In this document: positions 12,444 through 60,607 of the stretch, in pieces | How the letters are laid out: each line of letters starts with the position of its first letter | How positions within the stretch are numbered: the first letter of the stretch is position 1 | From: Squalus acanthias | Lineage: Eukaryota | Length of the DNA: 64,000 nt | Direction: 5' to 3' | Assembly: GCA_030390025.1 (NCBI GenBank) | Contig: CM059431.1 | Span: 147,004,001-147,068,000, forward strand | Program-made: the position numbers and the translations under genes | Notes under the pieces: model-generated | Databases searched by the model: none | What the model was told of the DNA's origin: nothing | What the model saw: only the letters and a program-made list of their open reading frames with translations

Positions 12444-15400
12444 TCAGACCGTGTCTTGGTCCCTGGGTCGCTTGCTTCGTACCGGCGGGCTGGCAGAGCT
12501 CCTGTCGCCTGGATCGACCTGAGGGGGACTGCGGAGATCGTGGCTCCGGGTGCAGGCCACCACAGGTGCAGAGCTGGCTTCATCCTGCTCAGTTGACGGT
12601 GATTGACCAGCGTCCTGGCTTCGGGTGGCCATCCGGCGGGGATTGCTCTGTTCCTCGGGTTGATCCGGCGGAGTAGCTGGCAGATCACTTGATGTCCCGG
12701 GTAGGGCGTCATCCTCAGAGGAGTGCAGAGTATCGGCGTCGTTTATATGGATCTCTCTATCGATTGGGTCCGTGGGACCGGTTGGGCAGGGAGCCAGATC
12801 CCAAAGTGAAACTGTGGAATTCCGGCCATCAGGGTACCGCACGTACGCATCTGTAGGATTGACATCCGTTAGCTCCACCTTGTCGATGAGGGGATTACTC
12901 TTGGAGGACGGACGAATCTTCGGAGCAGCACGGATCCAGGAGCTGCCAACCATGATGGTAGGGACGTCCCATGAGTGGAGCGATGCTGGAACCCGAAGAA
13001 TTGTTCGTAAGGAGTAACATTGGTGGATGTAGAAAGAAGAGACCTGATGCAATGCATCGCGTCAGAGAGCAGAGTTTCCCACTGCTGGTCTGGTAGATTG
13101 TGTGGCCTCAGTGCAAGACGAACAGCGTTCCAAATGATAGCGTTGTATCTCTCAACCTGTCCGTTTCCAATATGATGATACGGTGTAATTTTACTTTTGG
13201 CAATTCCCCGTTGGGAAAGATAACTTTTGATTTCGCTTGACATGAAGGAGGGAACCCGATGAGTGGATGAAATTGGCCATACCGTAAAGGGAAAAGACCT
13301 GATCGAGGCATTTGATCACTGTGGAAGTAAGCATATTGGGACAGGGGAAAGCAAAGGGAAAGCGTGAATATTCGTCCACCATAGTAAGCAAGTAGGTGTT
13401 TCGCGTTGAGGAAGGCAATGGCCCTTTAAAGTCAATGCTGAGTCGTTGCATAGACTGTGTAGCGTGTATGAGCGAGCCATCCGACGGACGGAAGAACTGT
13501 GGTTTTAATTCCGATCAAATTCTACAAGCGGAGCATGTTCTTTTCATGTCTTCCGTAGAAAATGTGAGATTTTTAGATCACACAAAGTGCAACATACGGG
13601 TAACGCCAGGGTGGCATAAGTCAGTATGAAGATTTGCAAGAGTCGAAGTTGACATGGAAGAGCAGAATGCAAGCATGAGTGTATCCGGGGCCACATTCTC
13701 CTTGCCGGGTAGATATTGTATGATGTAGCCAAAAGCGGCCAATTCCATCCTCCAGAGCTGTATTTTGTTATTCTTGATTTCAGTGCATTTCCTGTTATCC
13801 AGCATAAAGGCCACCGAGCGCTGATCGGTTATGAGCGTGAAATGGCGACGGGCGAGAAAATTACTCCATTTACATAGTGCCTCAATGATAGCCATAGCCT
13901 CCTTCTCGACAGGAGGGTACTGGAGGTCGCTACCCTGCAAAGTTCTAGACAGAAAGGCAACGGTTCCACGACCTTGATTCAAGGTAGCCAAGATCACCAC
14001 CTCCGATGCATTGCACTCGACAACGAATGGGAAATTTTCATCGATGGAATGAAGCGCGGCTTTTTCCAGTTGTTGCTTGAGGAGGTCGAATGCTGAAATA
14101 GCCCTCGCCTCCAACGGAAATGACTTTGCGTGAAGCAGGGGCTGGATGTTGTCGGAAAAGTGAGGTATCCACTTCGCATAATAGGCGAACATGCCGAGTG
14201 CCCAATGAAGAGAGCTGAGATTCGTAGGAGGAGGGAGCTCCTGAAGCGGACGAAGTCACTCCGGATCCGGTTTGATGACACAATTGCCAACCCAATGGCC
14301 AAGGATGTTGACTGATGGTACTGATTTCACAGATTTGAACTCATTTAAGGTTAAGTTGCGACGACGGAGAAATTCAAGAAATTTCTGGAGTTTGGCATCA
14401 TGCTCCTTCTGGTCATGAGCAGTAATGGTGATATTACCAAGATATGGAAAAGTGTCTGTTAAGTTCTCCTGTTTGACTAGGCTATCCATTGCCCGTTGAA
14501 AGACGGCCACCCCATTGGTGACCCCGAATGGAAGGCGACGAAACTGGTAAAGCAGACCACTGGCCTCAAAAGCCGTATACTTTTCGTCAGAGTCCTTTAT
14601 CGGTACTTGATGGTATGCGCTCTTTAAGTCAAACGTTGAAAATACCTTGTAGTTAGCAAGGTTATTGACCATGTCATCGATGCGTGGTAGTGGGTAGGCA
14701 TCCAGGTCGGTATAATGGTTAATAGTTTGCGAGTAGTCGATGCAAATACGTTTCTTGTGTTGCTTCAGAGAATTTTTAACAACGACGACTTGAGCCCATA
14801 GAAACATAGAAACTTGGAAGATAGGAGCAGGAGTAGGCCTTTCGACCCCTCGAGCCTGCTCCGCCATTCAATGAGATCATGACTGATCATCCAAAATCAG
14901 TACCCTGTCCCTGCCTTTTCCACATATCCCTTGATCCTTTTAGCCTTAAGAAATATATGTAACTCCTTCTTGAATATATTTAATGAATTCGCCTCCACTG
15001 CCTTCTGTGGCAGAGAATTCCACAGGTTCACCACTCTCTGGGTGAATAAATTCCTCCTCTTCTCTGTCCTAAATGGCTTACCCCTTATCTTCAGACAGTG
15101 ACCCCTGGTTCTGGGCTCCCCGACCATCGGGAACATCCTTCCTGCATCTAGTCTGTCTAGTCCTGTTAGAATTTTATAAGTTTCATTGAGCCCGCCAGGA
15201 AGATGAACATGGCTCAATGATACCGTCAGCTAGAAGGCGAGAGATCTCTGCCTCGATAAAGGAAAGGTCATCTTGGCTGAAACATCGTGATTTAGTGGCT
15301 ATGTGCTTACATCGGTGGGGGAAAGATTGACAAACAAGGAGGGCTCGTCGAGTGAAGCCGCCGAAAGTGCACAAAACGGTACTTTGGAAATCGTAAGCTC

Positions 15401-16949: not shown

Positions 16950-19665
16950 TTGTATAGGGTCACCACCTGTAATGTTAGAGTAGGGTCAACACTGCTAATG
17001 TTAGTTTGGGGACACTACCAGTAATGCTAGAGTATGGTCACCACCAGTAATGTTAGAGTAGGGTCACACCAGTAATGATGAAGTACGGTTACCATCAGTA
17101 ATGATAATGTAGGGTCACCACCAGTAATGATAGAGTAGGGTTTCCACCAGTAATGTTAGTGTAGGGTCCCCAGAATAATATTAGATTAGGGTCACCAGAA
17201 TTAATGTTATTCTAGGGTCACCACCACTAATGATAGAGTAGAGTCACCACGAGTAATGTTAGTGCAGGGTCACCACTAGTAATGCAAGTGTAGGTTCGCC
17301 ACTACTAATGTTAGAGTAGGGTCACCACCAGTAATGTTAATGTAGGGTCACCATCTGTAATGTTCCAGTATGGTCACCACCTGTAGTGTTAGTGTAGGGT
17401 CAGCACCAGTAATAATAGAGTAGATTCACCACCACTAATGTTAGGGCAGGGTCATCACCAGTAATGTAAGAGTAGGGTAAATACAAGTAATGTTAGAGTA
17501 GGATCACCTCCAGAAATGTTATAATAGAATCAGCACCAGTAAAGATAGTGTAGGGACACCACCAGTAATGATAGAGTAATGTCATCACAATTAATGTTAG
17601 AGTAGGGTCACCACGAATAATGCTATACAAGGATCACCGCCTATAATGTTAGAGTAGGGTCATCACGATTAATGCTAGCGTAAAGTTACCATCAGTAAAG
17701 TTAAAATGGGTCGCCGTCAAATTGTTACATTATGATCACCATCATGTTAGAATAGGATTAACGCTATTAATTTTAGAGTGCGTTCCTCAGCAGTAATGCT
17801 ATAGTACAGTACTCATCAGTAACGTCAGAGTATGGAGACCACATGTACTGTTAGAGTAGATGCACCACCAGTAATATTGGAGAAAGATCACCACCACTAA
17901 TGTTAGATTCGGTCACCATCAGTGTTAGAGTAGAATAAACACAAGTAATATTACAGTAGCGTTGCTGCCATTAACGTTTTAGTTGTGTCAACAGCAGTAA
18001 AATTAGAGTAGATTCACCCTCACTAATGTTAGTGCGGGTCACGTCTAATGATGTTACATTAACATCAACACCAGTAATGTTAGATAAGGGTCACCACCAG
18101 TAACGATAGAGTAGGGTAACCACCAGTAACGATAGTGTAGGCTCACCACCAGTAATGTTAGAGTTGGGTCAACAACATTAATGATAGATTAGAGTCATCA
18201 CCAATAATATTAGAGCAGGGTCATCATCAGTAATATTCGAATAGAATCACAGCCAATAATGTTAGAGTAGTCTCAACACCAGTAATGCTAGAAGAGGGAC
18301 ACCTCGAGATATGTTAGAGTAGAGTCACCACCAGTAATGATACAGTAGAGTCACCACGAGATATGTTAGAGCAGAGTCACCACCAGTAATGTTAGAGTAG
18401 AGTCACCACCAGTAATGTTACAGTAGAGTCACCACGAGATATGTTAGAGCAGAGTCACCACCAGTAATAATAGAGTAGTGTCATCACCAGTAATATTAGA
18501 GTAGAGTCATCACTAGTAATATTCGAATAGAATCACCGCCAATAATGTTAGAGTAGTCTCACCAGCATTAATGTTAGAGTAGGGTCACCACCAGTAATGT
18601 TAGAGTCGGGTCACCACGAGATATGTTAGAGTAGGGTCACCACCAGTAATGTTAGAGTAGCATCACCACGAGATATGTTAGAGTAGGGTCACCACCAGTA
18701 ATGACAAAGTAGAGTCACCACCAGTAATGATAGAGTAGAGTCATCACCAGTAATATTAGAGTAGGGTCATCACTAGTAACATTCGAATAGAATCACCGCC
18801 AATAATGTTAGAGTAGTCTCACCACCAGTAATGTTAGAGTAGGGTCACCACCAGTAATGTTAGAGTACGGTCACCACGAGATATGTTAGAGTAGAGTCAC
18901 CACCAGTAATGTTAGTGTAGGGTCACCAAGAGATGTGTTAGAGTAGAGTCACCACCAGTAATGTTAGAGTAGGGTCACCATCATTGATGATAGAATAGGA
19001 TCACCGCCAGTAATGTTAGTGTAGGGTCATCACCAAAAATATTTGAATAGGATTAACGCCATTAATGATAGGATAGTGCCAACACCTTTAATGTGAGATT
19101 AAAGTTACCATCAGTAAAGTTAGAGTGGGTCGCCGCCAAATAGTTAGATTATTATAACCACCATGTTAGAATAGAATTAACTCTATTCATTTTAGAGTGC
19201 GATCACCAGCAGTAATGTTAGAGTACAGTATTCATCAGTAACGTCAGAGTATGGATACCGCATGTAAATTTAGAGCAGATGCTCCACCAATAATATTGGA
19301 GTAAGGACAACACCACTAATGTTAGATTCCGGTCACCATAAGTGTTAGAGTAGAAAACACACAAGTAATATTACAGTAGGGTTGCCGCCATTAACGTTTT
19401 AGTAGTGGCAGCAGCAGTAAAATTAGAGTTGATTCACCATCACTATTATTAGTGCGGGGTCACGACTATTGATGTTAAATTAACATGAACACCAGTAATG
19501 TTAGAGTCGGGTCGCCACAATTAATGTTAGATTAGTGTCACTGCCATTAATGTTAGAGTACGGTCACCACCAGTAACGATGGAGTAGGCTCACCACCAGT
19601 AATGTTAGAGTAGGGTCACCACCAGTAATGATAGATTAGGGTCACCACCAGTAATGATAGAGTAG
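16950..19665. repeat. 26-bp satellite (GTAATGTTAGAGTAGGGTCACCACCA), left part
   Basis: Direct tandem copies of variable divergence; the array resumes in phase after the ERV. Confidence 0.95.
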
Positions 19666-20235
19666 TGTTGTAGGGGCTAATCGGAGCCTTAAGCGGACTA
19701 ACCATGAAGGAGAGTCGACGCGCTACCCGACTTAGCCCGACTGAGCAATAAAACTCAAACACCAATTTACACGGTTAAATGCGGGAGTACACTTTATTCA
19801 GAGCGCTCTGGGAGAGAATTGATGCACCCACGTGCAGTCACCGACCTCTCAAATAAGTCACTCTGGGGCACAGTATTTTATACATCCATCATTGATTACA
19901 TCGTGCTCACATGAGCATGTGATAGTCATTAGAATCCAATCAATTTTATGTATACAATTGTTAAGCATAGTAAATCAATTAACGTCAGGATACAGTTGAT
20001 GTGATCAGCCTCGTCTATGTGACAGTGTTATCTCGAGCCCTGTACCAGGATACAGTTGATGTGATCAGCCTCGTCTATGTGACAGTGTTATCTCGAGCCC
20101 TGTATGTTGCAACGTTGTCTGACAAGGCAGACTGCCAATCCATTGCAGAAAAGTCCTGTGTCAGCGAATTTAAAGTTCATTAACTGGATGAGTTTTTCTT
20201 CTCCGACATTTCTTTAATAATTTTCTCCTCCAACA
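19666..20235 (-). repeat. ERV 3' LTR (570 bp; 60-bp tandem duplication in U3; AATAAA at 19793-19798 on minus)
   Basis: By eye, identical to 27169-27678 except for one substitution and the duplication at 19987-20106. Confidence 0.96.
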
Positions 20236-20313
20236 CTCCCTTCTGTTGGTCCGGGGGCACGACCTTCTTGCCCCCAGGAAACCACTGCTCCGTGCCTCTT
20301 CACGGGGTCGACG

Positions 20314-21710
20314 CTACAGCCACTGGCTCATCTCTTGAGGGCTGGCTACCCCGGCGACGGTGTCATGCGTTTCCTCCATGGGCTGGAGATCGGTGTATCC
20401 TTCCTTTTCTTCGTCTTTGAGCAACGGCTCCTCTTCCCGTACGGCGCTGACTGACATTAGCTGGGTTGTGGCAATCTTACAACATGTCTTTAACAAGGTT
20501 ATCAAGCAACATACAGCGACACATATCATCACTATCACAACCATTACGTGCATAATCCAGGGGCCCCATTCTGTTAGCCCCAACCATTCTAGCCATGACT
20601 GTGTCGGTTCCCGGTGTAATTTCTTAATCTCTTCCTTCATGTGATTTACCAAGTTGGTGATGTTTTCCGAACTATCAGGGATGTAAGTACAACACTCTTG
20701 CCCGATCACCGCGCAAGTGCCTCCTTCCTTTGCAAGCAGGTAGTCCAGTGCCATCCTGTTTTGCATGGCCACTGTCCTGAGGGCTACCATTTCTGCGCTT
20801 ATTTCTGCAAGGGCTTCTGTGGTGTCGTTGGCTACCTTCTCGAGAATTTGGGCATTGTTAATGATTTCCCGTGCTAATTTACCCACCCCCCAGTGGGGGA
20901 AGGCGACGGCGAAGAATCGCTCAGTCTCCGTAATTCCTTGCCTGGTTCGATAACAATGGTGCTCCATGAGGGATTTGAGATGGTATACATAAGGCATAAC
21001 GTATCCCAGGTAACATGACCCGGTCCAATCTCTGGGCAGCCATGGGTACGCCTTGTGCCCGCATATAAAATATGTTCCATTGTAGGCCGTCATATCCATG
21101 TTTGCCCGAAAGATAGTGAAACCCATCTGACTATCTGTGGCCCGTCGGGTCCCATTCCACGGTTGGTTAGCAGACCAGTGGTATTAAACCACCAGCTTTC
21201 AAATGCCGTGTTCCCCTCCTCATATGTCACAAAGGTTTGGGTGCAATTACTATTTCCTGCCTCTAGGTTCACCTTCACCCCTCTACTTACACTCCTTGTC
21301 CAACATATTTCCCCGACGGGTCTTCCTACCCCGGTTGTGTTTGTTAGGGCGAAGAAGGGTGGATCTTTACTAGAGTTGTACTTGGGTTTGTAACATCCCT
21401 TAAATTGTTCCAATGGGTACCCTCCACCTCGGAACTCCTCCCTCGTGATGTCATGATAGCTGTTCTGGTCATTAAGCGCAAATTCTGCTAGTTCCGTGAG
21501 ATTCAGGGGTATGGGCCGCAGTGGTATCCCACCCTTACTGTGGATCGGAATATGACTACACACCCAACAGCTACTTTGCCCTGTCTCCTTTACGTATTCA
21601 TACGACATATATACAAAGGTATTCACCTGGAGCTCTCTTCGCTTACGGGAGCCCCTTTCCATTCCCGAAACAATGCATGTTAACGCTATTAAACACAGTG
21701 GTATCCCCAT
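20314..21710 (-). pseudogene. env: ERV envelope, gamma-type, one frameshift between about 21090 and 21185
   Basis: Signal peptide MGIPLCLIALTCIVSG, CWVC motif, ISD MQNRMALDYLLAKEGG, CX6CC (CAVIGQECC), and TM helix WIMHVMVVIVMICVAVCCLITLL. Split over two overlapping frames. Confidence 0.93.
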
Positions 21711-21909
21711 TTTTACTTGGAAGCAGGCACTGTCTATCACCGCGTCGTTGCCGCTTCTGGTAGCACTCTTGTATTAACATACAAACATAAAAACACAGTA
21801 GTTAGTACACCAAATGCAATAAGCCAAAGCACGAATGCAAACAGGTAAGGTAATTGGACATTTACGGGTCGCTTGATCTGTAGGTAAAAGAAACACAAAG
21901 AAGCGCCCA

Positions 21910-24900
21910 TTAGTTCATCTTTTCTCCATATATTTTTAATTGTGTCCAATGTTTCCAGACTCCCTTCCCCCTTATGTCCAGACAGGCACAGGTATCACCA
22001 CTAATTATAATTTCGTAGGGTCCGCTCCATTTTGGGGCGAAGCCTGGCTTGTCAGGCAGGACCTTCAGCATCACTTTGCTGCCCGCTGACGGCACGGAGG
22101 GTGTCATGACCCCCTCCTGTGCCTGATCCTGAAGTTCCTGATTGTCTCGTACGGCTTGGCGCATCCCCTTCAGTTGGGTGCTAAGCTCTAAGAAATAACG
22201 CCGTAGTCTGTCCTTTAAGGGGCCCACATCAGCCCCACCTGTTATGATGCCTTCTGGTAATTGCATCGCCCTTCCTGTCATTAGTTCATAAGGGGTCAGG
22301 CCTGTCGTACGATTCGTGGTGGCTCGTAACTTCATTAGGATAAGGGGTAAAACCTCAACCCATGTTTTCCCAGATTCCTGTATTGCCTTTGCTAAAGCGT
22401 TTTTGAGTGTTCGATTCATTCTTTCAACCATTCCCGAGCTCTGGGGGTGGTAAGGGATATGGAACTTCTGTTTGATCCCCATCAGCTGACAAATATTCTT
22501 TACTACACTCCCTGTAAAGTGCGTTCCTTGGTCAGAGTCGATTTGCAAGGGCACTCCCCACCGCGGGATTACTTCCTCGGCCAGGATTCTGGCTACCGTT
22601 AAGGCCGTGCAATTCCGCGTTGGGAAAGCTTCTACCCACCTTGTGAACTGGTCAATTATCACAAGGCAGTATATTTTTCCGTGGGACTGGGGAAGTGGTC
22701 CCGTAAGATCAATTTGTATGTGCTCCCAAGGACCTCGGGGTCTTGGCTGGTGGCCCATTCTAATTTTAATAGGCCGGCCAGGATTATGCTGAGCACAAGT
22801 GATACATCGCTGACAGTGCCTCGCGATGTCTCTTCCCATCCCCTTCCACCACCAATCCTTACTTAATAAGGAGCTCATTGCCTCTCTCCCTGTATGTGAA
22901 ATACCGTGATGTATCTCTAGCAGAGTCTGTTGTATGCACTCCGGTGCTACTACTTTACCTTCTTTTCGCCAGACTCGATCGGATCCTACTCCAGCTCCAT
23001 TTCTTACCCATGTTTCCTTTTCCGTGTCTGATGCTTCGTCTTGGACTTCCCAGATCTTTATTTCGTTCTCCGGGCTGTCTACGCTGCCCACCAGTACTTC
23101 GTTTATCTCCTCCTGTTCTAGAGCTGCCTGTGCTGCCCAATCAGCCGCCTGGTTCCCCTGGTGGCTGTCCCAGTCTGGGCTTGTCTTGTCTGGTTCTTTC
23201 TGATGGGCCTTAATTTTGATAACTGCCACCTGTTTAGGTCTTTTGCTTGCTTCTAGCAAGGCCTCTATTCGTCCCTGATGTTTGATGGGGTTACCTCCTG
23301 TGGTTATATACCCTCTACGTCCCCATGCTGTCATGTAGTCATGCACTACCCCGAAGGCATACCGGCTATCTGTGTATATATTGACTACCTGGTTCTTTGC
23401 TTCATTCAATGCTTGAGTCAACGCGACCAACTCTGCTACTTGGGCTGATAAGCTACCGTCTAACCGTCCAGATTTAACTACTTCCATCTTACTATTAACT
23501 ACTGCCCACCCGGTTCGGGGTTGTCCATTAATATATTTACGGGATCCATCTACATAGAATGTTTCCTCCACTTCCTCTAGAGGGGTGTCTTTGATAATCT
23601 CTTCTCCAATGTCCTCGTCTATTTTTTTTTACAACTGTGTGGGGCTCCTGTTCCCAGGATCCCCTCAGCTGGGTTCTCCCCTATGTCTCTGACTATGATG
23701 ATAGACTCGTTAGGGGGTAATAGAACTGCTTCCCACTTAGCTCTTCTCATGTTTGAGACAGATCTTAATTTTCCAGTATTTAGCATTTCCACCAAGGTAT
23801 GCTTGGTGTGCAAGACTATGTTCCCGGTCATTACTATAGGTTCGCTCACCTTTACTGCCCATGCTGCGCAGTCCAGTGCCGCTATACATCGCGAGAGTCC
23901 GGAGACTACCGGTCCTTCTGCGGTCGAGTAGTATGCCACTGGTCTGCGCTTATCGCCATGGTCCTGGGTTATCACAGCGGTGTAGAACCCGCCCTCATTG
24001 TCACAGTGAATATGGAAAGGTTTGTTCATATCTGGCAGCCCTAGTCCCGGGGCTGACAGTAACTCCTTCTTCAACTGTCCGTAAGCTTTTTCCTGTTCTG
24101 GGCCCCACTCTATGGACTCAAGGGCAGGCCTTCCTCCCTTTACTAACCTTTGGATAGGCTCAGCTATCTTAGCGAACCCGGGGACGAAGTTCCTGCTGTA
24201 GTTAAAAAGTCCTAAGACCTTCCTAACTCCCCTTATTGTCACTGGTCTGGGCATATCCCAGACTGCAGCCTTCCTATCCGTTGGCATCTCCTTTGTCCCT
24301 TGGGAAATGAGATGCCCTAGATACGTGACTTTGAACTTTCCAATCTGGGCCTTCCTAGGGCTAGCCTTCAGTCCTGCGTCCCTTAATGCTGTCAGTACTA
24401 TCTTCAGGGCCTTATTATGACCTGGAACTTTGTCCGAGGCTATCAGGATATCGTCAACGTACTGGAGGACCGTGCTCCCTGGTGGGAGCTCTGCACCCTT
24501 TAAAATATTACTCATTACCCGATGGAAGATCGCGGGGCTATTATGGAATCCTTGTGGCAGGCGGGTCCAGGTGTACTGTCTGTCTCCTACTGTGAATGCA
24601 AATTTCTCCTGAGACTCTGGATCCAATGGGAGAGCCCAGAATCCGTTGGCTATGTCCAACACTGTGAATATCTTGTGTTCGGGAGCCAGTCCGTTCAAAA
24701 TTGTGGACGGGCTGGCGACTATGGGGTGAAGCTTGGGCGTCACTTTATTCAAGGCCGTATAGTCAATTGTCAGCCTGTAACTCCCATCTGGCTTTTTAAC
24801 TGGCCACGTAGGGGAATTGGTTGTGCTCGTGGTTTCCCGAAGGACACCTCTTTCTACCAATCCCTTTACTATGTCTTCTACAGCTTTCTTTGCTTCTGGT

Positions 24901-25469
24901 TTAATGGGATATTGTCGGTGGGGTTTGTGTTCGGGTCCTGGGACGACAATGGGGTCAATCTTAACCATTCCTGTGTCTAACTTATCTTTTGCCCATACTC
25001 CTTGTACCGAGGCACACGTGTCCCCGTACCCATTGGTTTCCACTTGCCAGTCCCGGCTTACCGCTGTAGCCACTCCCACTTTGGTGGTATTATTGGTCAG
25101 ACAGTGCATACTAGTTTTATTCCCGTCCAAGTTTGGCCAAGTTATTTTCTTCTTACCACAATCAATTAATACCTGGTATTCTTTCATTAAGTCATTTCCC
25201 ATTATTGTTCCCTCATTATTCTTACACACGTAAAATCGCATAGGGATGAAAAAGTTATCTATTTCTACCAATTGGGTTGTGCTCAGAAAGGCAGGTGTTT
25301 TATCACCGCCAATCCCTGTGATGTAGACCTTTCTGTCCGTTATCGGGATGGGAAGGTCGGTCACGGATACTGAGGCACCGGTGTCCACTAGCATCTCACA
25401 CGGTCGGCCCCCTACTAGTGCAGACACATACATCCTTCCTTTGTCTCTTTTTACGGGGGCCGCTGACTG
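21910..25469 (-). CDS. pol: ERV pro-pol (PR-RT-tether-RNase H-IN), interrupted only at the A9 run (23622-23630)
   Basis: LVDTGA (PR); LPQGFHNSP and YVDD (RT); FYVDGS...AELVAL...YTDS (RH); HHCC, D-D-E and GPY (IN). In frame with gag after a single TGA. Confidence 0.93.
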
Positions 25470-26804
25470 TCACTGTGTCTCTTTCCACTGTTGATATAGT
25501 CTCTTTTCTTCGGGGGTCATGGTGACGTGGGTCGTCTCAGGTCTGCCATGTTTACTGAAACAAGTGGCCTCAGTATGGCCCTTCTTATTACAGTAAGTAC
25601 ATGTCTTCTTAGCCATACAATCTCTAATAAAATGTCCAGGCTTCCCGCAACCATGACATGCCCCCTTGGGTCCCACTGCCTGTTTTACCGCACTTACACT
25701 TTCCTGTTTAACCTTGACCGTACCTTCCTCTTTGGCTTTTAACCCGTCTACCCCACAAGCCCACTCTACTAGGTCGTCGTAATTCCTGGTTGTTACTACG
25801 CCCATCTTGATGATAGCCTGGTGTGCGGGAGACAAGCCATCTTTAAAGGCCTGAATGAAAGCGGGGTCAGTTCTTGCCGGCCCTGGTTGGCCTGATGACT
25901 CTCCATAAACAATAAACAGCCTTTCTCCATATTCGGAGGCCGCCTCGCCCTTTTGCTGCTTACAGGACGTTATCTTACTCCAATTAGTTGGGGCCTCTCC
26001 TAACACCCGCTGGATTTCTGTTTTAAACAGATTAAAGGGAGCCTGTTGTCGGTCTATTGTATCTGCCAATGGACATTGTTCAGTCCATCGACCGGTCTTA
26101 TAATCCGTATTGGCCTGATTGGGGGTGGTCTGCGTGAGGCGCCATCGGTCGACCGGACATGCTGCCCGGACCAACTGATGAACGTCACGCAGGTGGAGGC
26201 TGTGTCCCAGCCAAACCATATCTAGGTTTGCCCAGAACTTGGTGTTGGCACTTCGTGTTTGTAAGTTCCCCAGGTCTTTCAAAATCTGTTGTCTTTCTCC
26301 CGGGGTAAAAGGCTGAAAATCCGCCCTTGCCCCGGCGGCACCAGGCTGGCCCCTCATTTTAACGGGGGCCGCGAAATATTCTTCTGTTGTATCCCCAACT
26401 GTTTCTTCAGTTGGGGCTGTTGGTCCGGAAAGTCCGTACGGGGGGAGTGGATCTGTGTTACACCCCGTCCACCTTCCGGGACACATTCTACTTTGTTCTT
26501 GATTTATTCCCTCTAGTATTTCTATCTTCTTTTTTAAATCTGCTATTTCTCTGTTTTTGGCCTTCTCAGTCTCTCGGACCTTATCTACTTGCTCGATTAG
26601 TCCCGCCAATTGGTGTACCAAAAGAACTCCCGTTTTCTTGGTTTTCTCCCTTTTTTGCTTACGTACCCACTCTCGTTGTGACTCTAATGACTGGCTAACA
26701 TCCCAGCCATCTTTCTGCATTCTGTCTATCAGCGAACGTCTATCTGTCATGTAACTATTAATAAGGGACCCCGGGGGCCCCATCTTAATGTCCTTACCTG
26801 ACAT
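25470..26804 (-). CDS. gag: ERV Gag, 444 aa, intact
   Basis: PTAP and LPPY late-domain-like motifs, MHR-like CKQQKGEAASEYGERL, and two CCHC knuckles (CHGCGKPGHFIRDC, CTYCNKKGHTEATC). Confidence 0.94.
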   Translation of the reverse strand: MSGKDIKMGPPGSLINSYMTDRRSLIDRMQKDGWDVSQSLESQREWVRKQKREKTKKTGVLLVHQLAGLIEQVDKVRETEKAKNREIADLKKKIEILEGINQEQSRMCPGRWTGCNTDPLPPYGLSGPTAPTEETVGDTTEEYFAAPVKMRGQPGAAGARADFQPFTPGERQQILKDLGNLQTRSANTKFWANLDMVWLGHSLHLRDVHQLVRAACPVDRWRLTQTTPNQANTDYKTGRWTEQCPLADTIDRQQAPFNLFKTEIQRVLGEAPTNWSKITSCKQQKGEAASEYGERLFIVYGESSGQPGPARTDPAFIQAFKDGLSPAHQAIIKMGVVTTRNYDDLVEWACGVDGLKAKEEGTVKVKQESVSAVKQAVGPKGACHGCGKPGHFIRDCMAKKTCTYCNKKGHTEATCFSKHGRPETTHVTMTPEEKRLYQQWKETQ

Positions 26805-27148
26805 CGCCCGTCCGCTCTCCGATCACACTCTCCAGTAAACACTCACCGCCTCTCTTCACTCTCCCGTCCTTCTGGACTCGTGAACTCGTTTACCGATGTG
26901 TCTAGTTGCCTGGAGTTCCGGATCTCGCAAGCACCGCCCGCAGACTTTATCACAGGTTTTACTCTGTACCTTTAACCTACGGCCCAAAAATTTGACAGTG
27001 TAATGCAGAATACTCACAACGGTTCCCCCTCTGCCTTCCGAGAATACCCGGACCAAAAACCCCTATAAAGTGTACTCTCGCAAATCCCCTCAGATTCTTT
27101 CGGTTACTTGAGCCCGTTAACACTTGATCAGGGTGTCGGTACTCAGTA

Positions 27149-27166
27149 ACCCTGCTCGCAGCGCCA
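27149..27166 (-). promoter_or_regulatory. ERV primer-binding site, tRNA-Ser-like (TGGCGCTGCGAGCAGGGT)
   Basis: Starts with TGG 2 nt inside the 5' LTR. Its complement ACCCTGCTCGCAGCGCCA closely matches vertebrate tRNA-Ser 3' ends as I recall them. Confidence 0.8.
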
Positions 27167-27168
27167 AT

Positions 27169-27678
27169 TGTTGTAGGGGCTAATCGGAGCCTTAAGCGGA
27201 CTAACCGTGAAGGAGAGTCGACGCGCTACCCGACTTAGCCCGACTGAGCAATAAAACTCAAACACCAATTTACACGGTTAAATGCGGGAGTACACTTTAT
27301 TCAGAGCGCTCTGGGAGAGAATTGATGCACCCACGTGCAGTCACCGACCTCTCAAATAAGTCACTCTGGGGCACAGTATTTTATACATCCATCATTGATT
27401 ACATCGTGCTCACATGAGCATGTGATAGTCATTAGAATCCAATCAATTTTATGTATACAATTGTTAAGCATAGTAAATCAATTAACGTCAGGATACAGTT
27501 GATGTGATCAGCCTCGTCTATGTGACAGTGTTATCTCGAGCCCTGTATGTTGCAACGTTGTCTGACAAGGCAGACTGCCAATCCATTGCAGAAAAGTCCT
27601 GTGTCAGCGAATTTAAAGTTCATTAACTGGATGAGTTTTTCTTCTCCGACATTTCTTTAATAATTTTCTCCTCCAACA
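27169..27678 (-). repeat. ERV 5' LTR (510 bp; TATAAAA at 27379-27385 on minus)
   Basis: TG...CA termini; matches the 3' LTR. Confidence 0.96.
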
Positions 27679-30450
27679 GTAGGGTCATCGCAGTTAAAAT
27701 TAGAGTAGGGTCATCACCAGTAATATTAGAGTACGATCATCACTAGTACTGTTAGAGTAGGGTCAAAACCAGTAATGATAGAGTAGGGTCACCACCAGTA
27801 ATGATAAAGTAGGGTCATCAGCAGTAATGTTATTGTAGGGTCAACACCAGTAATGATAGAGTAGGGTCACCACCAGTAATGTTAGAGTAGCGTCACCATC
27901 AAACATTTTAGAGTAGTTTCACCAACAGTAATGATAAAGTAGGGTCATCAGCAGTAATGTTATTGTAGGGTCACCACCAAAAATGTTAGAGTAGGGTCAC
28001 CACCAGTAATGTTAGAGTAGCGTCACCATCAATCATTTTAGAGTAGGGTCACCAACAGTAATGAAGAAGTAGGGTCAGCACCAGTAATGTTAGAGTAGGG
28101 TCACCACCAGTAATGTTAGAGTAGCGACACCATCAATAATTTTAGAGTAGGGTCACCAACAGTAATGAAGAAGTAGGGTCACCACCAGTAATGATAGAGT
28201 AGGGTCATCACCAGTAATATTGGAATATAATCACTGCCAATAATTTTAGAGTAGAGACACCGCCAGTAATGATAGAGAAGTGTCTTCAACAGTAATATTA
28301 GAGTAGCGTCATCACCAGTAATATTAGAATAGAATCACCGCCAATAATGTTAGAGTAGAGACACTACCAGTAATGTTAGAGTCGGGTCATCACCAGTAAC
28401 GTAAGCGTAGGGTCACCGACAGTAATGTTACAGTAGGGTCATCACCAGTAATGATAGTGTGGGTTCACAACCAGTAATGAAAGAGTCGGGTCACCACCAG
28501 TAACGTTAGTTTAGGGTCACCACTAGTAATGTTAGAGTAGGGTCACCACCATTAATGTTAGATTAGGGTCACCAAAAGTAATGATAGAGTAGGCTCGCCA
28601 CCAGTAATGTTAGAGTAGAATGACCACCAGTAATGATATAGTAGAGTCATCACCAGAAATGTTACTGTAGGGTCACCAATAGTAATGTCAGTATAGGGTC
28701 ACCAATAGTAATGTTAGATTAGGGTCACCAGCTGTAATGTTAGTGTAGTGTCAGCACCAGTAATGGTAGTGTCGAGTCACCACCAGTAATGTTAGGGTAG
28801 GGTCGCCACCAGTAATGTTAGAGTAGGGTCACCAACAGTAGTGTTAGAGTAGGGTCACCACCAGTAATGTTAGAGTAGGGTCATCACCAGAATGTTAGGA
28901 TCGACTCACCACCTGTAATGATAGAGTAGGGCCACCATCAGTAATGTTAGAGTCAGGTCATCACCATTAATGTTAGAATATGGTCACAACCAGTAATCAA
29001 AGAATAGGATCACCGCCATTAATATTAGTGTACTATCCCCACCTTAATGTTAGTGTAGGGTCAACACCAATAATATTTGAATAGGATTACCGCCAGTAAT
29101 GATAGGATAGGGCCAACACCATTAATGTTAGCGTATAGTTACCATCAGTAAAGTTAGAGTGGGTCGCCGCCAAATAGTTAGATTATTATCACCAACATGT
29201 TAGAATAGGATTAACACTATTAATTTTACAGTGCGATCACCAGCAGTAATGTTAGAGTACAGTACTCATCAGTAACGTCAGAGTATGGAGACCACATGCA
29301 ATGTTAGAGTAGATGCACCACCAATAATATTGGAGTAATGTCACCACCACTAATATTAGATTCGGGTCACCATCAGTCTTAGATTAGAATAAACACAAGT
29401 AATATTACAGTACGATTGCTGCCATTAACGTTTTAGTAGTGTCAATATCAGTAAAGTTAGAATAGATTTACCATCACTAATGTTAGTGCGGGTCACGACT
29501 ATTGATGTTAAATTAACATCAACAGCAGAAATGTTAGAATAGATTCATCGCAAGTAATGTTAGAGTAGATTCACCACAGTAATGTTAGAGTAGGTTGTAC
29601 ACCAGAAATGTTACAGCAGGGTCACCCCCAGTTATAATAGCGTAAGTTCACCTTCAACAATGATAGAGTACAGTCACCACCAGTAATGTTAGAGTTGGGT
29701 CTTCACCATAATGTTAAAGTCGGTTCACCCACCTGTAATTATAGAGAAGGTAACCACCAGTAATGTTAGAGTAGAGTCACCACCAGTAATGTTAGAGTGG
29801 GTTCACCCACCTGTAATGATAGAGTAGGGTAACCACCAGTAATATTGGACTAGGGTCACCATCAGTAATGTTAGAATAGAATCACGACCAGTAATGTTGG
29901 GGTAGGGTCACCACCAGTAATGTTAGAGTAGAAACACCACCAGTAAGGATAGATTGGGGCCACCATCATTAATGATAGGGTAAGGTCATAAGCATTTATG
30001 TTAGAGTAGGGTCACCACCAGTAATGTTTGAATAGGATCACCGCCAGTAAATTCAGATTAGTATCACCACTAGTTATGTTAGTGTAGGGTCATCACCAAT
30101 AATATTTGAATAGGATTAGCGCCAGTAATGTTACGATAGGGCCAACACAATTAATGTTAGCCTATAGCTACCATAAGTAACGTTAAAGTGGGATCACCAT
30201 CAGTAATGTTAGAGTAGGGCATCACCAGTAATGTTCGAGTGTGGTCAGAATTTGTAATGCTAGATTAATGTCACCACCGGTAATGTTACAGTAGCGTCCC
30301 CACTGCTAATGTTGGAGTGGATTCACCACCAGTAATGTTAGATTAACATCACCACCATGAATGTTAGAATATGGTCATTACTGATAGTGTTAGAATAGGA
30401 TCATCACCAGCCATGTTCGAGCTGAGTCACCACTAGTAATCATTACAGTA
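27679..30450. repeat. 26-bp satellite, right part
   Basis: Same unit as 16950-19665. Confidence 0.95.
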
Positions 30451-30845: not shown

Positions 30846-32554
30846 ATGATACGGCCAACAATTCTACAGATAAGGGACATTTACTACCATTTGCTCGCAG
30901 CCTTCGGTGTTCCCGGTAAGTCAATGTATCCTGTTGACTAATAGTTGTTGACTATCTCAGTGTTAATGTAACAGATTCCGAGAATGTCCTCATTGCAGAA
31001 TCATTGATCCACCGGGATCAGTCGGTGAATATCAGAGGGAATGAAGCCACTCCGCGCGGCCGCTGAGGCGCTGTTCTGGTCGCTCGATCGTGGGCACCGG
31101 ACGCTCAACCTTCCTCCCTATACTGAGGGAGGGCGAGGCTGATTCACCGGCCCCTCCTACAGTACATAGATCACTAAAGAATGTGTTGCTCATTGCCCAT
31201 AGTAATCATCTGTTTCGCACCTTTGTCCTCTATCTATTTTAAGTTGATAATTCCTGGCACTTCAGCCACCTCCACCCAACACTGGACTTTGGATGGTAAT
31301 TTGAGAAATAACTGTTGCTCGCGGAGTTGCTCCCCTCCGCTCGGCAGCGTTTCGAATTAAATTGAACTGTTTTCTCTAAGCTGAATGTATTATTTGAATT
31401 ATATCTTTCCATTAATTGCCGTGAAATTATATTTCATACTTGACTGAAGTTTGCTGCAAGGACGGCGAATTTTCAGTCCCTCGATATTGAACTTTCAATG
31501 AGTTCATTTGTTTAAATAAAGTGTCGTTACCCTCGATTATATTAATGTTAAAAAATCTATGCGCATAACGCTGAATAGGGACAGTACCGAACATTTCCCC
31601 ACAATAAGCTGTGAGCTTTATCCGACTATCCCCGTTACTGACCTCTTCCACCAGTTTCTCACAGCGAACCTACTGACAATCCTGATTCTCTCCAGAGGAA
31701 ACTGCGGCCTTTCCAAATGTATCTCTGTTTACATGGTGGCCATGGCAACAGCAGATCTACTGGTCATGATCATCAGTATATTAGTGAACCGCATTATCAG
31801 TCATCACTTTCCACATTCCTTCCTGTCCTACAATTCCGTCTGTAAGATCATTATGTACATGCAATGTGTCACCCTGTATGTGTCGGTGTGGTTTACAGTC
31901 TCGTTCATATTTGACCGATTTGTAGCTATATCTTGTGAGACGTTTAAAACAAAGTATTGCACAGTGAGAACTGCGGCCGCGATTATAGCAACGGTCTCTG
32001 TCCTGATCTGTGTACAGAGCCTTCCTTTTTGGTTTGCATTTGAACCTGAGAGAATAATTCACAATGTTCACTGGGGTTGCCGTGCCAGAGTGGAGTTTTT
32101 TTCATCGCCTGCAGGTGCAGCATACTCCTGGTTGGAAAGTATTTTGGTTGCTTGGCTTGCTTTTGCTTTGATATTACTATTTAATTGTTTGACAGTCAGA
32201 CGCATTTTAGTGGCCAGTAGAGCCCGCAGGGGACTCCGGGGTCACAGCAGTGAGAATCAGAGCGATCCAGAGATGGAGAACCGAAGGAAATCCATCAGTT
32301 TACTGTTCACTGTATCGGGCAATTTTATACAGTTGTGGCTGAAAGCTATCGTTAGTTTTTTAACTACCAGACTGACAAACACGGCGCAGTATCGAAGCGA
32401 TTATGCAGCCCCTGCCTATATTGCCACTGAAACCGGATATATGCTCATGTATTTGAGCTCCTGTACAAACACATGTATTTATGCAGCTACTCAACCTAAA
32501 TTCAGGGAAGAGCTGAAGAATGTGGTGAAATGGCCTTGCACATTAATTGGTTAA
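30846..32554 (+). CDS. GPR139-like class A GPCR, two exons (30846-30915, 31665-32554), 319 aa
   Basis: Exon 1 MIRPTILQIRDIYYHLLAAFGVP ends at a G|GTAAGT donor, and the acceptor is tttctcacag|CG. The spliced frame is open, with AMATADLLV, FDRFVAI, DPEMENRRKSI and NTCIY motifs. A paralogue, so no symbol is given. Confidence 0.88.
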
Positions 32555-46401: not shown

Positions 46402-49400
46402 ATGGGGCGACCAACTATTCTTCTGATCAAAGAGATTTACTACCCGATTCTCGCGGCCGTCGGTGGCGCCGGTGACCTATTGCAACCTGTTTGTTGTTAA
46501 TCGGTGTGAATTGTATTCATGTACATACAGCCTGTTTTGATAAGGTAACGAGTTTTCTAGATGCCAGCAGTAAACAAATCCGATAACCTCACTGATGTTA
46601 CAATGTTCTTTGAAGCTACAACAGAAGGATTTTAGCGGATTTCCGGATCGTCTTGTCACCCCCTGCAGAGTGAGCGCTGCAGCAGCTCATTAAAATGTGT
46701 GGGTGGGTTTAGAAACATAGAAACATAGAAGATAGTAGCAGGAGTAGGCCATTCGGCCCCTCGAGCCTGCTCAGCCATTCAATGAGATCATGGCTGATCA
46801 TCCAAATTCGGTAACCTGTCCCTGCCTTTTCCCCATATCCCTTGATCCCTTTAGCCTTAAGAAATATATCTAACTCCTTCTTTTAATGAATTGGCCTCCA
46901 GTGCCTTTAGTGGTAGAGAATTCCACAGGTTCACCACTCTCTGGGTGAGGAAATTCCTCCTCATCTCTGTACTAAATGGCTTACCCCTTATCCTTAGACT
47001 GTGACCCCTGGTGCTGGACTCCCCGACCAATGGGAACATCCTTCCTGCATCTAGTCTGTCTAGTCATGTCACAATTTTATAAGTTTCAATGAGATCCCCT
47101 CTCATTCTTCTAAACTCAAGCGAGTATAAGCCCAATCGACCAAATCTCTACTCATACGTCATTCCTGCCATCCCAGGCATCAGCCTGGTGAATCTTCGCT
47201 GCACTCCCTCCATGGCAAGAACATCCTTACTCAGATAAGGTGAACAAAAGTGCACACAATACTCAAGATGTGGTCTCACCAAGGCCCTGTACAACTGCAG
47301 CAAGACATCCTTGTTTCTGTATTCGAACCCTCTCGCTACGAAGGCCAACATACCATTTGCCTTCTTAACCGCCTGCTGCACCTGCATGCTTACCTTCAGC
47401 GACTGGTGCACAAGGACACCCAGGTGTCGTTGCACTTCCCCTTCTCCCAATCTATTGCCATTCAGATAATAATCTGCCTTCCCGCTTTTGATTCTAAAGT
47501 GGATAACTTCGCATTTATCCACATTATAATGCATCTGCCATGATTCTGCCCAATCACCCAACCTGTACAAATCATACTGGAGTTTTTTGGCATCCTCCTC
47601 ACAGCACACACGCCCACCCAGCTTTGTGTCGTCTGCAAACTTGGAGATATTAAATCTAGTTCCCTCGTCTAGATCATTAATATATACTGTGAATACCTGG
47701 GGTCCTAGGCCCGATCCCTGCCGTACCCCACTAGTCACTGCCTGCCACTCGGAAAAAGACCCGTTTATTCCAACACTTTGCCTTCTGTCTGCAAGCCAGT
47801 CCTCTATTCAAGTCAATACCTTGCCCCAAATCCCATGTGCTTTAAGTTTACAAGCTAATCTCTTATGCGGGACCTTATCGAAAGCCTTCTGAAATTCCAA
47901 TTACATCACATCCACTGGTTCTCCCTCATCTATTCTACCAGTTACATCCTCCAAAAATCCCAGTAGATTAGTCAAGCATGATTTACCTTTTGTAAATCCA
48001 TGTTGACTTTGTCCGATCCTGTCACTGTTTTCCAAGTGCTCTGCTATTACATCTTTTATAATGGATTCTAGCAATTTCCCCACTACCGATGTCAGGCTTA
48101 TCGGTCTATAATTCCCCGTTTTCTCTCTTCACCTTTTTTGAATAGTGGGGTAACATTAGCTACCCTCCAATCCATGGGTACTGTTTCAGAATCTATCGAA
48201 TTTTGGTACATGATCAGCAATGCATCTACTATTTCTAGGGCCACTTCCTTAAGTTCCCTAGGATGTAGATTATCAGGCCTTGGGGATTTATAGGCCTTCA
48301 ATCCCGACAATTTCGCTAACACCATTTCCTTACAAATACTGATTTCTTTCAGTTCCTCCCGCTCATTAGACCCTATGATCCCCGACCTCTCTGGGAGGTT
48401 ATTTATGTCCTCCTTTTTGAAGACAGAATCAAAGTATGTATTTAATTGGTCTGCCATGTCTTTGTTCCCCATTATAAATTCCCCTGATTCTGACTGCAAG
48501 GGACCTACGTTTGACTTCACCAATCCTTTTCTCTTCACATATCAATAAAAGCTTTTACAGTCAGTTTTTATGTTCCCTGCAAGTTTAGTCACATACTCTA
48601 TTTTCCCCCTCTTAATTAATCCCTTTGCCCTTCTTTGCTGAATCCTAAACTGCTCCCAATCATCAGGTTTACTGCTTTTTCTGGACAATTTATAAGCCCT
48701 CGCCATGGATCTTATGCTATTCCTAATTTCCCTTGTTAGCCACGGTTGAGTCACCTTTTTTGCTTTTTTTTTGCCAAACAGGGATCAACAAATTCTGTAG
48801 TTCATCCATGCGATCTTTGAATGTTTGCCATTGCCTATCCACCGTCAGCCCTTTGAGTAACATTCCCCAATCAATCCTACCCAACTCGCGCCTCATACCA
48901 TCGTAGTTTCCTTTATTTAAATTCAGGACCCAAGTCTCCGAGTCAACTACTTCACTCTCCATCTTAATGAAAAATGTTATCATATTCTGGTCGCTCCGAC
49001 CCAAGTGGCCTCGCAAAACAAGATTGCAAATTATTCCTTTCTCATTACATAATACCCAGGCAATGGATCCAATACTAATCCTTTCTCACACTGCTCCGTG
49101 TTGACAATCACAGTGACAGGAGTAAAATGCTCTCTACAGGTATCTCCATATATATTTCAATCAGAGTCGGAAACATTATTCCTCTCCTCTCTCTTTCTTT
49201 CAGCGAACTTGGTGACAATTGTGATTCTCCCTCCCGAGGAAACTGAGGCCTTTCCAAGTGTATCTCTGTCTACATGCTGGCCATGGCAACAGCTGATCTG
49301 CTAGTCATGATCATTAATTTAAAAATGTATCATATTTTCAGTTATCACTTTCCATTTTTATTCCTGTACCACACTCCCGTGTGTAAGTTCATTCTATACA

Positions 49401-58295: not shown

Positions 58296-59446
58296 CATTG
58301 TTGTTATCAATGTAAGTTGCAGCATCTAAATTCCATAGAAATCGCAATGGAAGCTTAAAGAAAGTTTAAAAATAAACTAACATTATTTTAAATTAAACGA
58401 CCGTTCATAAAATAAATTTTCTTTCAAATAAATGAAATGAATTACATTAATTGAATTACCTTAAATTAAACTTCTTACAGTTTGTATGTTCAGTTGTTTT
58501 ATTTGACTTTTTCAGTTCAAGGATAATAAATAAATCACTAACATTTATGCCTACTGTTTTTTCGGGATCATTAGACTTGTGGACATCAGCTGTAGGCGTT
58601 GATTTTTTTCTCCGTTAATATAACATAAGATGTATTTAATTACGGCTGAGGTAAAGATCCCTTTACATTCTTCTAGCATTGTGTGGAACAAGAGGCAGAT
58701 TCTAATGTTAAGGACGGCCGTCAGACTCAGGATGGAGCTCTGTAATCCTGCACTAACAGTTTACAACGACAGAACAATCTGCACTGTTATAGAAACAAAT
58801 CCAACGCAATCATCGTGTTCCGACTTATAGATACATGATGGAGAACTTCGGGTGAGTTACATCCCAAATTTTTAACTCTTTCTTTCGACCCGATTATGCA
58901 ATACATTTTAAATAAATATTTACATCTGTTACTGAGTCTAAGGGGTAAAAATTCAGTTGGTTGCGCCTCCCGTTAGCGCCTTAAATGGGCGCTAATGGGG
59001 CGTTAAGGCGCTAACGCCCGGGCGCAGCGCTGTTTGCGCCGCTCGAGAACTTAACTTGAGATTGTGCGGCAGCGCTAAAACTTACCGCTGCGACCACCTG
59101 CGCGCGCAGATTGTGACGTCAGTCCGTGGTGCAACGCCCTTGGGGCGCCCCGGAGCGGAAATTGAGTGGCGCCCCCTGCCTTACCGCCTGGCGCTTCCAA
59201 CGACCGGAAGACTGGAACGTTATCAATCGGTCTGGGGCTGGGGGGGGGCGCTATTTAAAGGGGGCCTCTTCCTGTCTTTTTCTGTGGTCGACATTTATGC
59301 ACCACTCGTTCTGAGAGAGAGAGATTCGGAGAGAGAGAGAGACTTCTACATTGACTCAACGCTTTGTGAGTTAGTTTTGCCTAGTTCATCCTAACTTTGC
59401 TGCTACTTTCGTTGCTGTACCTCATTACTTTTCTGGCAAAGAGAAG

Positions 59447-60607
59447 ATGGGGGCTGCAATGATTGGGGGCGTCGTCCTGCTCCAGCTCAATCGGAGCAGA
59501 GTGAGACGCAGACAGAGAGTGGCAATGATGGCCAGACGGAGGAGGCCCATCAGGCGCATGTACAGGAGAGCTTACCCTCCCAGGGTATATCGTGAACAGC
59601 TCTCCTACATCCACATGTCCGAGGAGCTGTGTTTGCGAAGGCTGCGATTCAGCAAGGAGGTGGTCACTGAGCTCTGCCACCTGCTGCAGCCAGATCTGCA
59701 GCCTCAGCTGAGGTCCAGGACGTCTCTGTCGGTGGCAGTGAAGGTCACAGTGGCCTTGAACTTCTACGCCACTGGCTCATTCCAAGCTGCTGTTGGGGAC
59801 CTCGCCAATATCTCCCAGTTTGCGGTGCATCGCTGCATCCGGCAGGTCACCAATGCCCTCTTCACAAGGAGACGAGACTTCATCTCCTTCCCTATGACCC
59901 CAGACAAGCAGCATGACCGTGCTATGGGCTTTGCGAGGGTAGCGAGCTTCCCCATGGTGCAGGGCGCCATTGACTGCACGCATGTGGCTTTGCGTGCTCC
60001 GCGAGAGAATGCAGAGGAGTTCCGGAACAGAAAGGGGTTCCATTCCTTGAATGTGCAGTTGGTCTGTGACCACAGACAGGTGATTCTCGCTGTCAATGCC
60101 CACTATCCGGGCAGCTGCCACGATGCTTTCATCCTGCGCCAGAGTACTGTGGCAGAAATTTTCGAGGCACCGCATCAGCCAGTCGGTTGGCTTCTGGGGG
60201 ACAAGGGGTACGCATTGAGCACCTGGCTGATGACACCGCTCCGTGCGCCAAACACCCCTGCTGAGCTGCGGTACCAGGAAAGCCAACAAGCAACGAGGAA
60301 CATTATTGAGCGCACAATCGGCGTGCTCAAACAACGATTCCGCTGTCTGGACCATTCCGGAGGAGCCCTGCAGTACTCGCCTGAGCAAGTTTCCAAATTC
60401 GTAGTGGTGTGCTGCATGTTGCACAACATGGCAATCCTCAGGACGCAGCCAATGCCACCAGGCCTTGCAGCACCACAGGAGGAGGAGGAGGAAGAGGAGG
60501 AACAGGCCGAGGACGATGATCAGCAGCAGCACCAAGGCAGGAGGGCGGCCCACAATGGTCAAACTGCAAGGGCCGTCCGTCAACGACTAATAGCAAGCCG
60601 CTTCTAG
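59447..60607 (+). CDS. Harbinger DDE transposase (HARBI1-like family), 386 aa, intact
   Basis: GAIDCTHV, NRKGFHSLNVQLVCD, PGSCHDAFIL, LLGDKGY and RNIIERTIGVLKQRFRCL. TATA-like TATTTAAA at 59252; AATAAA at 60769-60774. Confidence 0.95.
   Translation: MGAAMIGGVVLLQLNRSRVRRRQRVAMMARRRRPIRRMYRRAYPPRVYREQLSYIHMSEELCLRRLRFSKEVVTELCHLLQPDLQPQLRSRTSLSVAVKVTVALNFYATGSFQAAVGDLANISQFAVHRCIRQVTNALFTRRRDFISFPMTPDKQHDRAMGFARVASFPMVQGAIDCTHVALRAPRENAEEFRNRKGFHSLNVQLVCDHRQVILAVNAHYPGSCHDAFILRQSTVAEIFEAPHQPVGWLLGDKGYALSTWLMTPLRAPNTPAELRYQESQQATRNIIERTIGVLKQRFRCLDHSGGALQYSPEQVSKFVVVCCMLHNMAILRTQPMPPGLAAPQEEEEEEEEQAEDDDQQQHQGRRAAHNGQTARAVRQRLIASRF

Follow-up and report, generated by a model that had tools for sequence, protein, structure and literature searches.

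A fish endogenous retrovirus with a putative UGA-CARYYA readthrough junction and a downstream helix that pairs in register in distant relatives

A very young provirus on the minus strand

The window, by which we mean the whole 64,000-nucleotide stretch of Squalus acanthias DNA that was analysed, contains on its minus strand an endogenous retrovirus (ERV) of the Retroviridae at 27678-19666, in which the order LTR-PBS-gag-pro-pol-env-PPT-LTR is complete and is accompanied by a target-site duplication of 4 bp (Table 1). Pfam matches (RVP, RVT_1, RT_RNaseH, RNase_H, rve, and TLV_coat) show protease, reverse transcriptase (RT), tether, RNase H, and integrase in that order, together with a retroviral transmembrane subunit (TM) that matches PF00429 at 2e-16; the 444-aa Gag gave no match to a gamma-type capsid in Pfam. 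The best PDB matches of the RT were gammaretroviral RTs, followed by foamy virus RTs. We take the primer binding site to resemble the 3′ end of a tRNA-Ser, and a covariance-model scan of 19600-27700 against Rfam returned no matches at E ≤ 1.

Table 1 Features of the provirus, in window coordinates
Feature	Position	Strand	Remarks
5′ LTR, 510 bp, TGT...ACA ends	27169..27678	-	target-site duplication CTAC at 27682-27679
Primer binding site	27149..27166	-	from sequence only
gag ORF, 444 aa, two CCHC zinc knuckles	25473..26804	-	
gag stop TGA, putative readthrough site	25470..25472	-	
CAGTCA, +1 to +6, CARYYA (type I) context	25464..25469	-	
Conserved helix, 5′ arm, +8 to +15, CGGCCCCC	25455..25462	-	
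Inner 5-bp hairpin within helix loop, +24 to +48	25422..25446	-	predicted
Conserved helix, 3′ arm, +58 to +65, GGGGGCCG	25405..25412	-	Gly-Gly-Arg codons 9 to 7 before protease Asp
pro-RT-tether frame, 616 codons, gag frame	23619..25469	-	ends at A-run break near 23620-23630
pol part with RNase H and integrase	21910..23628	-	different frame
env 5′ part	21090..21773	-	no Pfam match
env 3′ part, different frame	20314..21183	-	gamma-type TM, PF00429
Polypurine tract	20236..20244	-	
3′ LTR, 570 bp, 60-bp tandem duplication	19666..20235	-	target-site duplication CTAC at 19665-19662

The two LTRs differ by one mismatch over 569 aligned bases, and their difference in length corresponds to the 60-bp duplication of the 3′ LTR, a perfect tandem repeat (19986-20104) that is absent from the 5′ LTR. 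Because the LTRs are near-identical and the TGT...ACA ends, target-site duplication, primer binding site, and polypurine tract are intact, the provirus is a very young, full-length ERV. The pol frame nevertheless meets a stop at an A-run and env is split across two frames; with both broken downstream, a full Pol or Env cannot come from this copy. The element was matched in 20 of the 24 listed sequencing runs, which come from five coded organisms, one unlabelled run, and fish gut metagenomes. Shark, eel, and herring are the labels on its Pol relatives, and its host lineage is probably fish.

The provirus is surrounded by a 26-bp minisatellite array (16955-19665 and 27678-30440) with about 100 copies on each side. 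Elsewhere in the window, an intronless rhodopsin-family GPCR ORF of 344 codons lies on the plus strand at 31520-32554, and a DDE_Tnp_4 transposase ORF on the plus strand faces a 352-codon ORF on the minus strand within 59375-61960, a layout that we take to be that of a Harbinger-type transposon. Further decayed RT and RNase H fragments were found on the minus strand at 13578-14867 and 47148-47807.

The gag-pol junction and its relatives

On the minus strand, positions 25475-25461 read CAG TGA CAG TCA GCG, in agreement with an earlier account made from the letters alone (hereafter the sequence-only reading), which had left the strand unstated. The six bases after the stop fit CARYYA and make this a type I context, a stop codon followed by that hexamer, and the junction also fits the permissive pattern UGACANNNA that a passage of PMC10954755 reports from human ribosome profiling. 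The gag stop sits between nucleocapsid (NC) and protease, the DTG of which lies 29 codons downstream, and the frame is unchanged through RT and tether. The sequence-only reading had pro-pol continuing in the gag frame with no further stop; the shared frame stands, but it is open for 616 codons only, up to the stop at 23621-23619, with RNase H and integrase encoded in a different frame.

Multiplying the CAR and YYA codon frequencies of the window pol frame gives 0.0016, and none of the 597 other positions of that frame carries an in-frame CARYYA dicodon. Over both strands of the 64-kb window, 6 of 2539 TGA triplets are followed by CARYYA, the junction being counted among them. With several alternative known motifs allowed for, we estimate the chance of such a context at near 1% or below, and from these sequence comparisons the CARYYA context at the junction looks real and not a product of chance.

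Close copies were examined in contigs from 4 of the 24 listed runs (X3, X15, X2, and X16), which were aligned to 24700-26200. The stop codon carries no variant letter in any of the four: one X3 contig spans the whole junction, the covering contigs of X15 and X2 end no more than 31 letters from the junction and have all their differences elsewhere, and X16 has the stop and +1 intact, with two unplaced differences that make +2 to +6 uncertain. Because these copies are about 99.5% identical to the window, they rule out a private mutation and are too similar to show selection. A 98% identical Gag terminates at the same residue as the window Gag, and a search for a longer fused Gag found none among 6239 candidates, which is weak evidence. 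The nearest other Gag relatives (P0002-P0004) are 47-53% identical. Gag-based scans gave no loci from 315 candidate stretches in metagenome contigs or from 105 candidates in viral contigs; a single pro-RT query gave 0 of 2 in viral contigs, and scans of genome contigs gave 0 of 71 and 0 of 44. The 120 Pol homologues each begin with a start codon called by annotation, so that the junction lies outside them.

A profile search with pro-RT recovered four metagenome loci, representing two distinct elements, and one viral locus. The metagenome element L003/L004 is 42% identical to the window in pro-RT and has the junction GCA UAG CAA UUA GUG, which is the exact TMV motif and fits the full tobamovirus pattern xxA-UAG-CAA-UUA-xxG as set out in a passage of PMC3159437. 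The second, L001/L002, is 41% identical, and its junction CCA UAG CGC CAG GUG fits the furo/pomovirus pattern xxA-stop-CGx-xxx-xxG. The viral locus, L005, is 32% identical in pro-RT and reads UAG GGC GUU. Because UAG-GGC matches the hexamer given for snakehead retrovirus (SnRV) in a passage of PMC13517186, L005 is probably the SnRV record. All three distinct relatives have an in-frame gag stop 31-32 codons before the DTG.

Before counting contexts, we excluded L001 (99.7% identical to L002), L004 (98.8% identical to L003), L026 and L070 (on the contig of L005), L023 (its first in-frame stop does not correspond to that of gag), L025 (degraded), and L027 (the record of which has no upstream stop); the counts also omit L006-L013 and the RNase H-only matches L030-L069. 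CARYYA occurs at two of the four distinct elements of the clade described below (the window and L003/L004), with a chance from codon use of 0.002-0.005 per element, and at none of 12 gamma- or epsilon-like viruses outside it (10 usable gamma loci, L028 with UAG GAUCCA, and L029 with UGA AGAUGC). The leaky stop-CARYYA context named by the sequence-only reading thus recurs at the same junction of an independent relative, as UAG-CAAUUA. L003 is not the sister of the window element, and L002, which is the sister of L003, lacks the motif; since it is missing in two of four members, CARYYA is not required clade-wide. As to the conservation of TGA-CAR-YYA, which the sequence-only reading had put forward as a check, the TGA is unchanged in the four runs, the relatives have an in-frame UAG at the matching place, and the hexamer fits CARYYA in half of the clade members. 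The sisters L002 and L003, which differ in context (CGC versus CAAUUA), both have GUG GCC UC at +7 to +14, and G occupies +9 in all four clade members and in the 10 gamma loci.

We reconstructed one RT tree of 42 rows picked from 121 proteins and two quick RT trees of 24 and 25 rows; all were midpoint-rooted and constructed without foamy virus or ERV-L rows. In the 42-row tree the element falls outside the MLV and REV clade and is sister to a Heterodontus protein, with a support of 97/92 for its clade, L005 being absent from this tree. Grouping with the gamma- and epsilonretroviral RTs (MLV, REV, and WDSV) was not recovered: these formed separate clades from the element with support of 99-100 under a midpoint root only. 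The quick trees place the element, L002, L003, and L005 in an 11-row clade (SH-aLRT 97 and 95) in which L005 is not the sister of the element, and this clade may be wider than SnRV-like viruses, given that the trees contain no foamy virus or ERV-L rows. The contrast that the sequence-only reading drew with gamma- and epsilonretroviruses is accordingly slightly off, as the element lies outside that group. The UAG-G context and H-type pseudoknot of the gamma/epsilon class were not found at this junction.

A helix downstream of the stop codon

When the 80 bases that follow the stop were folded, as the sequence-only reading had also suggested, an 8-bp GC helix emerged between +8 to +15 and +58 to +65 before the relatives were known. 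The helix encloses a loop of 42 nt and has a mean pair probability of 0.99-1.00 in all five folding windows. A comparable helix starting at +7 to +10 was found for 2 of 566 other in-frame positions in the window pol, and the chance of eight Watson-Crick pairs with the amino acids held fixed is 0.0006.

We compared the register across elements by aligning the 3′ arm on the protease Asp. In the same register, L002 forms 8 of 8 pairs and L003 and L005 form 7 of 8 each (22 of 24 in the relatives), which gives 30 of 32 with the window included; this is the top score among 1446 registers, and none of 157 slid controls reached 30 (maximum 25). Changes on both sides are seen at three of the eight pairs, where C-G becomes U-A at +13 (L002 and L003), +14 (L005), and +8 (L003), and sliding the partner by 1-3 columns reduces pairing from 94% to 31-56%. 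A column-shuffle control was weak with four sequences, 40 of 500 shuffles equalling the paired fraction. The sample of four elements, with its weak shuffle control, thus shows compensatory changes in a helix that starts some 8 nt downstream of the stop. Since the relatives preserve this helix at one register, the simple linear signal proposed by the sequence-only reading is probably an incomplete description.

The predicted stability of the helix varies among the elements. It is part of the minimum free energy fold in three of the four (window, L002, and L005; +7 to +76 or +85), with a pair probability in L002 and L005 of 0.87-0.94 in two of five folding windows and at most 0.02 in the other three. 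In L003 the probability is 0.22 at best, local hairpins are favoured, and the helix wins in none of the five folding windows; its long-range helix energy is -10.7 kcal/mol, compared with -16 to -21 kcal/mol in the others. Whole-fold z-scores are modest (-1.4 for 80 nt, -2.3 for 70 and 121 nt, 0.2 for 120 nt, and -0.55 for 150 nt). We also sought a conserved second stem in the four elements: each has pairing of 5-7 bp or more between the loop and downstream sequence, but not in one register, and a pseudoknot with a conserved second stem was rejected for now. In L005 the loop at +25 to +41 has two further pairings with +99 to +129, of about 10 and 8 bp, which are out of register with the other elements and could represent a pseudoknot or a competing fold.

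The 3′ arm of the helix lies on the Gly-Gly (or Glu-Gly) codons 9 and 8 before the DTG. In all 10 gamma loci this G-rich strand pairs best with a C-run at +18 to +20, its pairing at +9 reaching 2-5 of 7, whereas at +9 the four clade members reach 6-7 of 7. From these alignments, the fish clade and MLV-type viruses appear to use the same strand with a different partner, either by common descent or by convergence on a G-rich stretch.

Two further groups of copies touch the helix region. A second family in X15 and X2, aligned to 25180-25439, has a protease about 82-84% identical to that of the window; its GCA GCC CCC corresponds to GCG GCC CCC in the window, and the following 20 bases have diverged; both helix arms differ at one pair (an A-A mismatch), and the rest of the visible helix is mostly kept. 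Contigs in X15 and X16 jump from 25438 to 23660-23679 and represent internally deleted copies without protease and RT; the deletion comprises 1758 bases, a multiple of three, with CC microhomology, and these copies have lost the 3′ arm of the helix but retain its 5′ arm together with gag and the region of the stop.

Readthrough mechanism and comparison with known systems

Judging from sequence comparison, it is very likely that some programmed readthrough occurs at this junction, and production of Gag-Pol by stop suppression, as the sequence-only reading proposed, is supported by the in-frame stops at the matching place in the relatives. The model we favour, with a probability of roughly 0.6, is that a leaky CARYYA context and a structural stimulator set readthrough together. 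Most ribosomes would terminate at the gag UGA and yield Gag; UGA in a CARYYA context would compete poorly for release factor, the helix would stand at the mRNA entry channel of the ribosome during stop decoding and add a pause, and an amino acid would be inserted by a few percent or more of ribosomes, this minority producing Gag-Pro-Pol. The helix would be the clade-conserved part, and the first six bases would vary (type I in the window and L003, CGC in L002, and GGC in L005). Passages of PMC13517186 describe spacers of 8 nt or more as typical of readthrough stimulators, and PMC3159437 provides in its passage on plant benyviruses a precedent for a type I context combined with a stem-loop. In this model each part would contribute to readthrough, and the helix would form in cells.

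It could also be that the linear UGA-CARYYA drives readthrough by itself and that the helix is a leftover or has another task, such as packaging, RNA stability, or the control of splicing. According to a passage of PMC13517186, type I motifs work without a structure downstream, and UGA-CARYYA alone gave about 15% readthrough in the mammalian reporter described in a passage of PMC4132726, equal to UAG, the hexamer tested being CAAUUA and not CAGUCA; L003, which has the perfect TMV context, also has the weakest long-range helix. Yet the helix begins at +8/+9, where known readthrough stimulators begin, it uses the strand that forms the 3′ side of stem 2 in the MLV pseudoknot, and members without CARYYA still keep it, and we consider this explanation unlikely. 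The converse division of labour, in which UGA-C and the helix act in a type II-like manner and CARYYA is incidental or reflects amino acids of the NC-protease cleavage site (Gln at +1), gains from the two clade members that share the helix without CARYYA, from the position of L003 next to a sister without the motif and apart from the window, and from the importance of a Gln near the NC-protease boundary in WDSV (in a passage of PMC13517186). Even with Gln fixed, however, YYA at +4 to +6 has a frequency of only about 0.06 in each of two elements, and L003 fits the whole of the longer tobamovirus pattern; we regard this division as rather improbable.

A nonsense mutation in a once-continuous gag-pol frame, or expression of pol by splicing or reinitiation, is largely refuted and in our judgement has very little probability. 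This copy does have two further breaks, and two distant NCBI gene models (P0133 and P0140) run from Gag into pol without a stop, although such models can splice round stops. Against this stand the unchanged TGA in the four runs, the Gag ending at the same residue in its 98% identical counterpart, the lack of a fused Gag in the candidate search (weak, as noted), and the in-frame stops of the three relatives. In P0140, from Mobula, Gag enters the protease without a stop, which could mean either that the copy is decayed and has a sense codon here or that the gene model bypasses the stop by splicing.

L005, the probable SnRV, shares with the window element an in-frame gag stop about 30 codons before the DTG, membership of the same supported RT clade, near-identical bases at +7 to +16, and the same helix with a C-G to U-A change; it differs in its UAG-GGC context, in its low pro-RT identity, and in not being the window's sister. 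A passage of PMC3835772 reports that no pseudoknot was found after the SnRV or WDSV stop. MLV and other gammaretroviruses, with UAG-G, an 8-nt spacer, and an H-type pseudoknot, resemble the window element in having an in-frame stop and a structure from +8/+9, and the diglycine codons before the DTG, which a passage of the review PMC13517186 assigns to the 3′ side of stem 2 in the MLV pseudoknot, occupy the position of the G-rich strand of the window helix, codons 9-8 before the DTG. They differ in the stop and its context and in the pairing partner of that strand, and no conserved second stem was found for the window element. With tobamovirus type I signals the window shares a hexamer that fits CARYYA and the G at +9 of the longer pattern; L003 is an exact TMV match, whereas the window has UGA instead of UAG and G instead of A at -1. 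The element is also an animal retrovirus with a long-range helix, while TMV has none and benyviruses have a local hairpin.

In its passages on type I contexts, the 2026 review PMC13517186 places them in plant viruses and describes them as absent from animal viruses, and it treats readthrough in epsilon and unclassified fish retroviruses as unverified, with cis-elements unclear. We found no openly licensed paper that reports either CARYYA or this helix for a retrovirus. As a tentative reading, held at slightly less than even odds, SnRV-related fish retroviruses might share an undescribed cassette, in which one helix made from the G-rich strand of MLV stem 2 is paired at +8/+9 and type I (CARYYA), type II-like (CGC), and type III-like (GGC) contexts, as well as UGA and UAG, are interchangeable ahead of it. 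If so, animal viruses would have their first type I readthrough motif, and the cassette would be a simpler relative of the gammaretroviral pseudoknot and possibly its ancestor; it would bring the three textbook classes of readthrough together on a single scaffold and bear on the origin of the MLV pseudoknot. If the helix is inert, what is left of the finding is two fish ERVs with a type I context. The junction and its three relatives provide a short and concrete element that lends itself to testing, also for exogenous SnRV, in which an earlier scan for pseudoknots had come up empty, and the comparison of these four sequences suggests how a little-studied group of fish viruses may control readthrough.

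Other systems resemble the window in single features. The sequence-only reading considered UGA unusual for a retrovirus, but UGA between gag and pro is already published and is not the unusual part: it is given for SSSV, ZFERV, and a toad ERV (RMERV) in a passage of PMC13517186 and for XtERV-S in one of PMC8278194. None of the listed contexts (UGAAGA, UGACGA, and UGAAGU) is CARYYA. XtERV-S further resembles the window in its TGT/ACA LTR ends, serine primer binding site, and combination of a class I TM with a class III pol, as described in a passage of PMC8278194. The features of the XtERV-S/ERV-L-like class III, a Gag without CCHC and a pol with dUTPase, are absent from the element, which has two CCHC knuckles in Gag and no dUTPase match in Pfam. 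The env of lokiretroviruses differs from the gamma type, in contrast to the TM of this element with its PF00429 match. A search of PMC7947760, on lokiretroviruses, with junction terms found no passage on readthrough, and the passages concerned of PMC12193657 do not discuss the gag-pol junction. L029 shares UGA (UGA AGA) but lacks the +9 helix, forming 3 of 7 pairs. The retrotransposons RIRE2, Kamikaze, and SIRE1 carry stop-CARYYA junctions and are plant or insect elements, not Retroviridae. A passage of PMC3441728 gives CARYYA as the canonical motif for junctions of LTR retrotransposons, and one of PMC2754532 names RIRE2 as a readthrough candidate.
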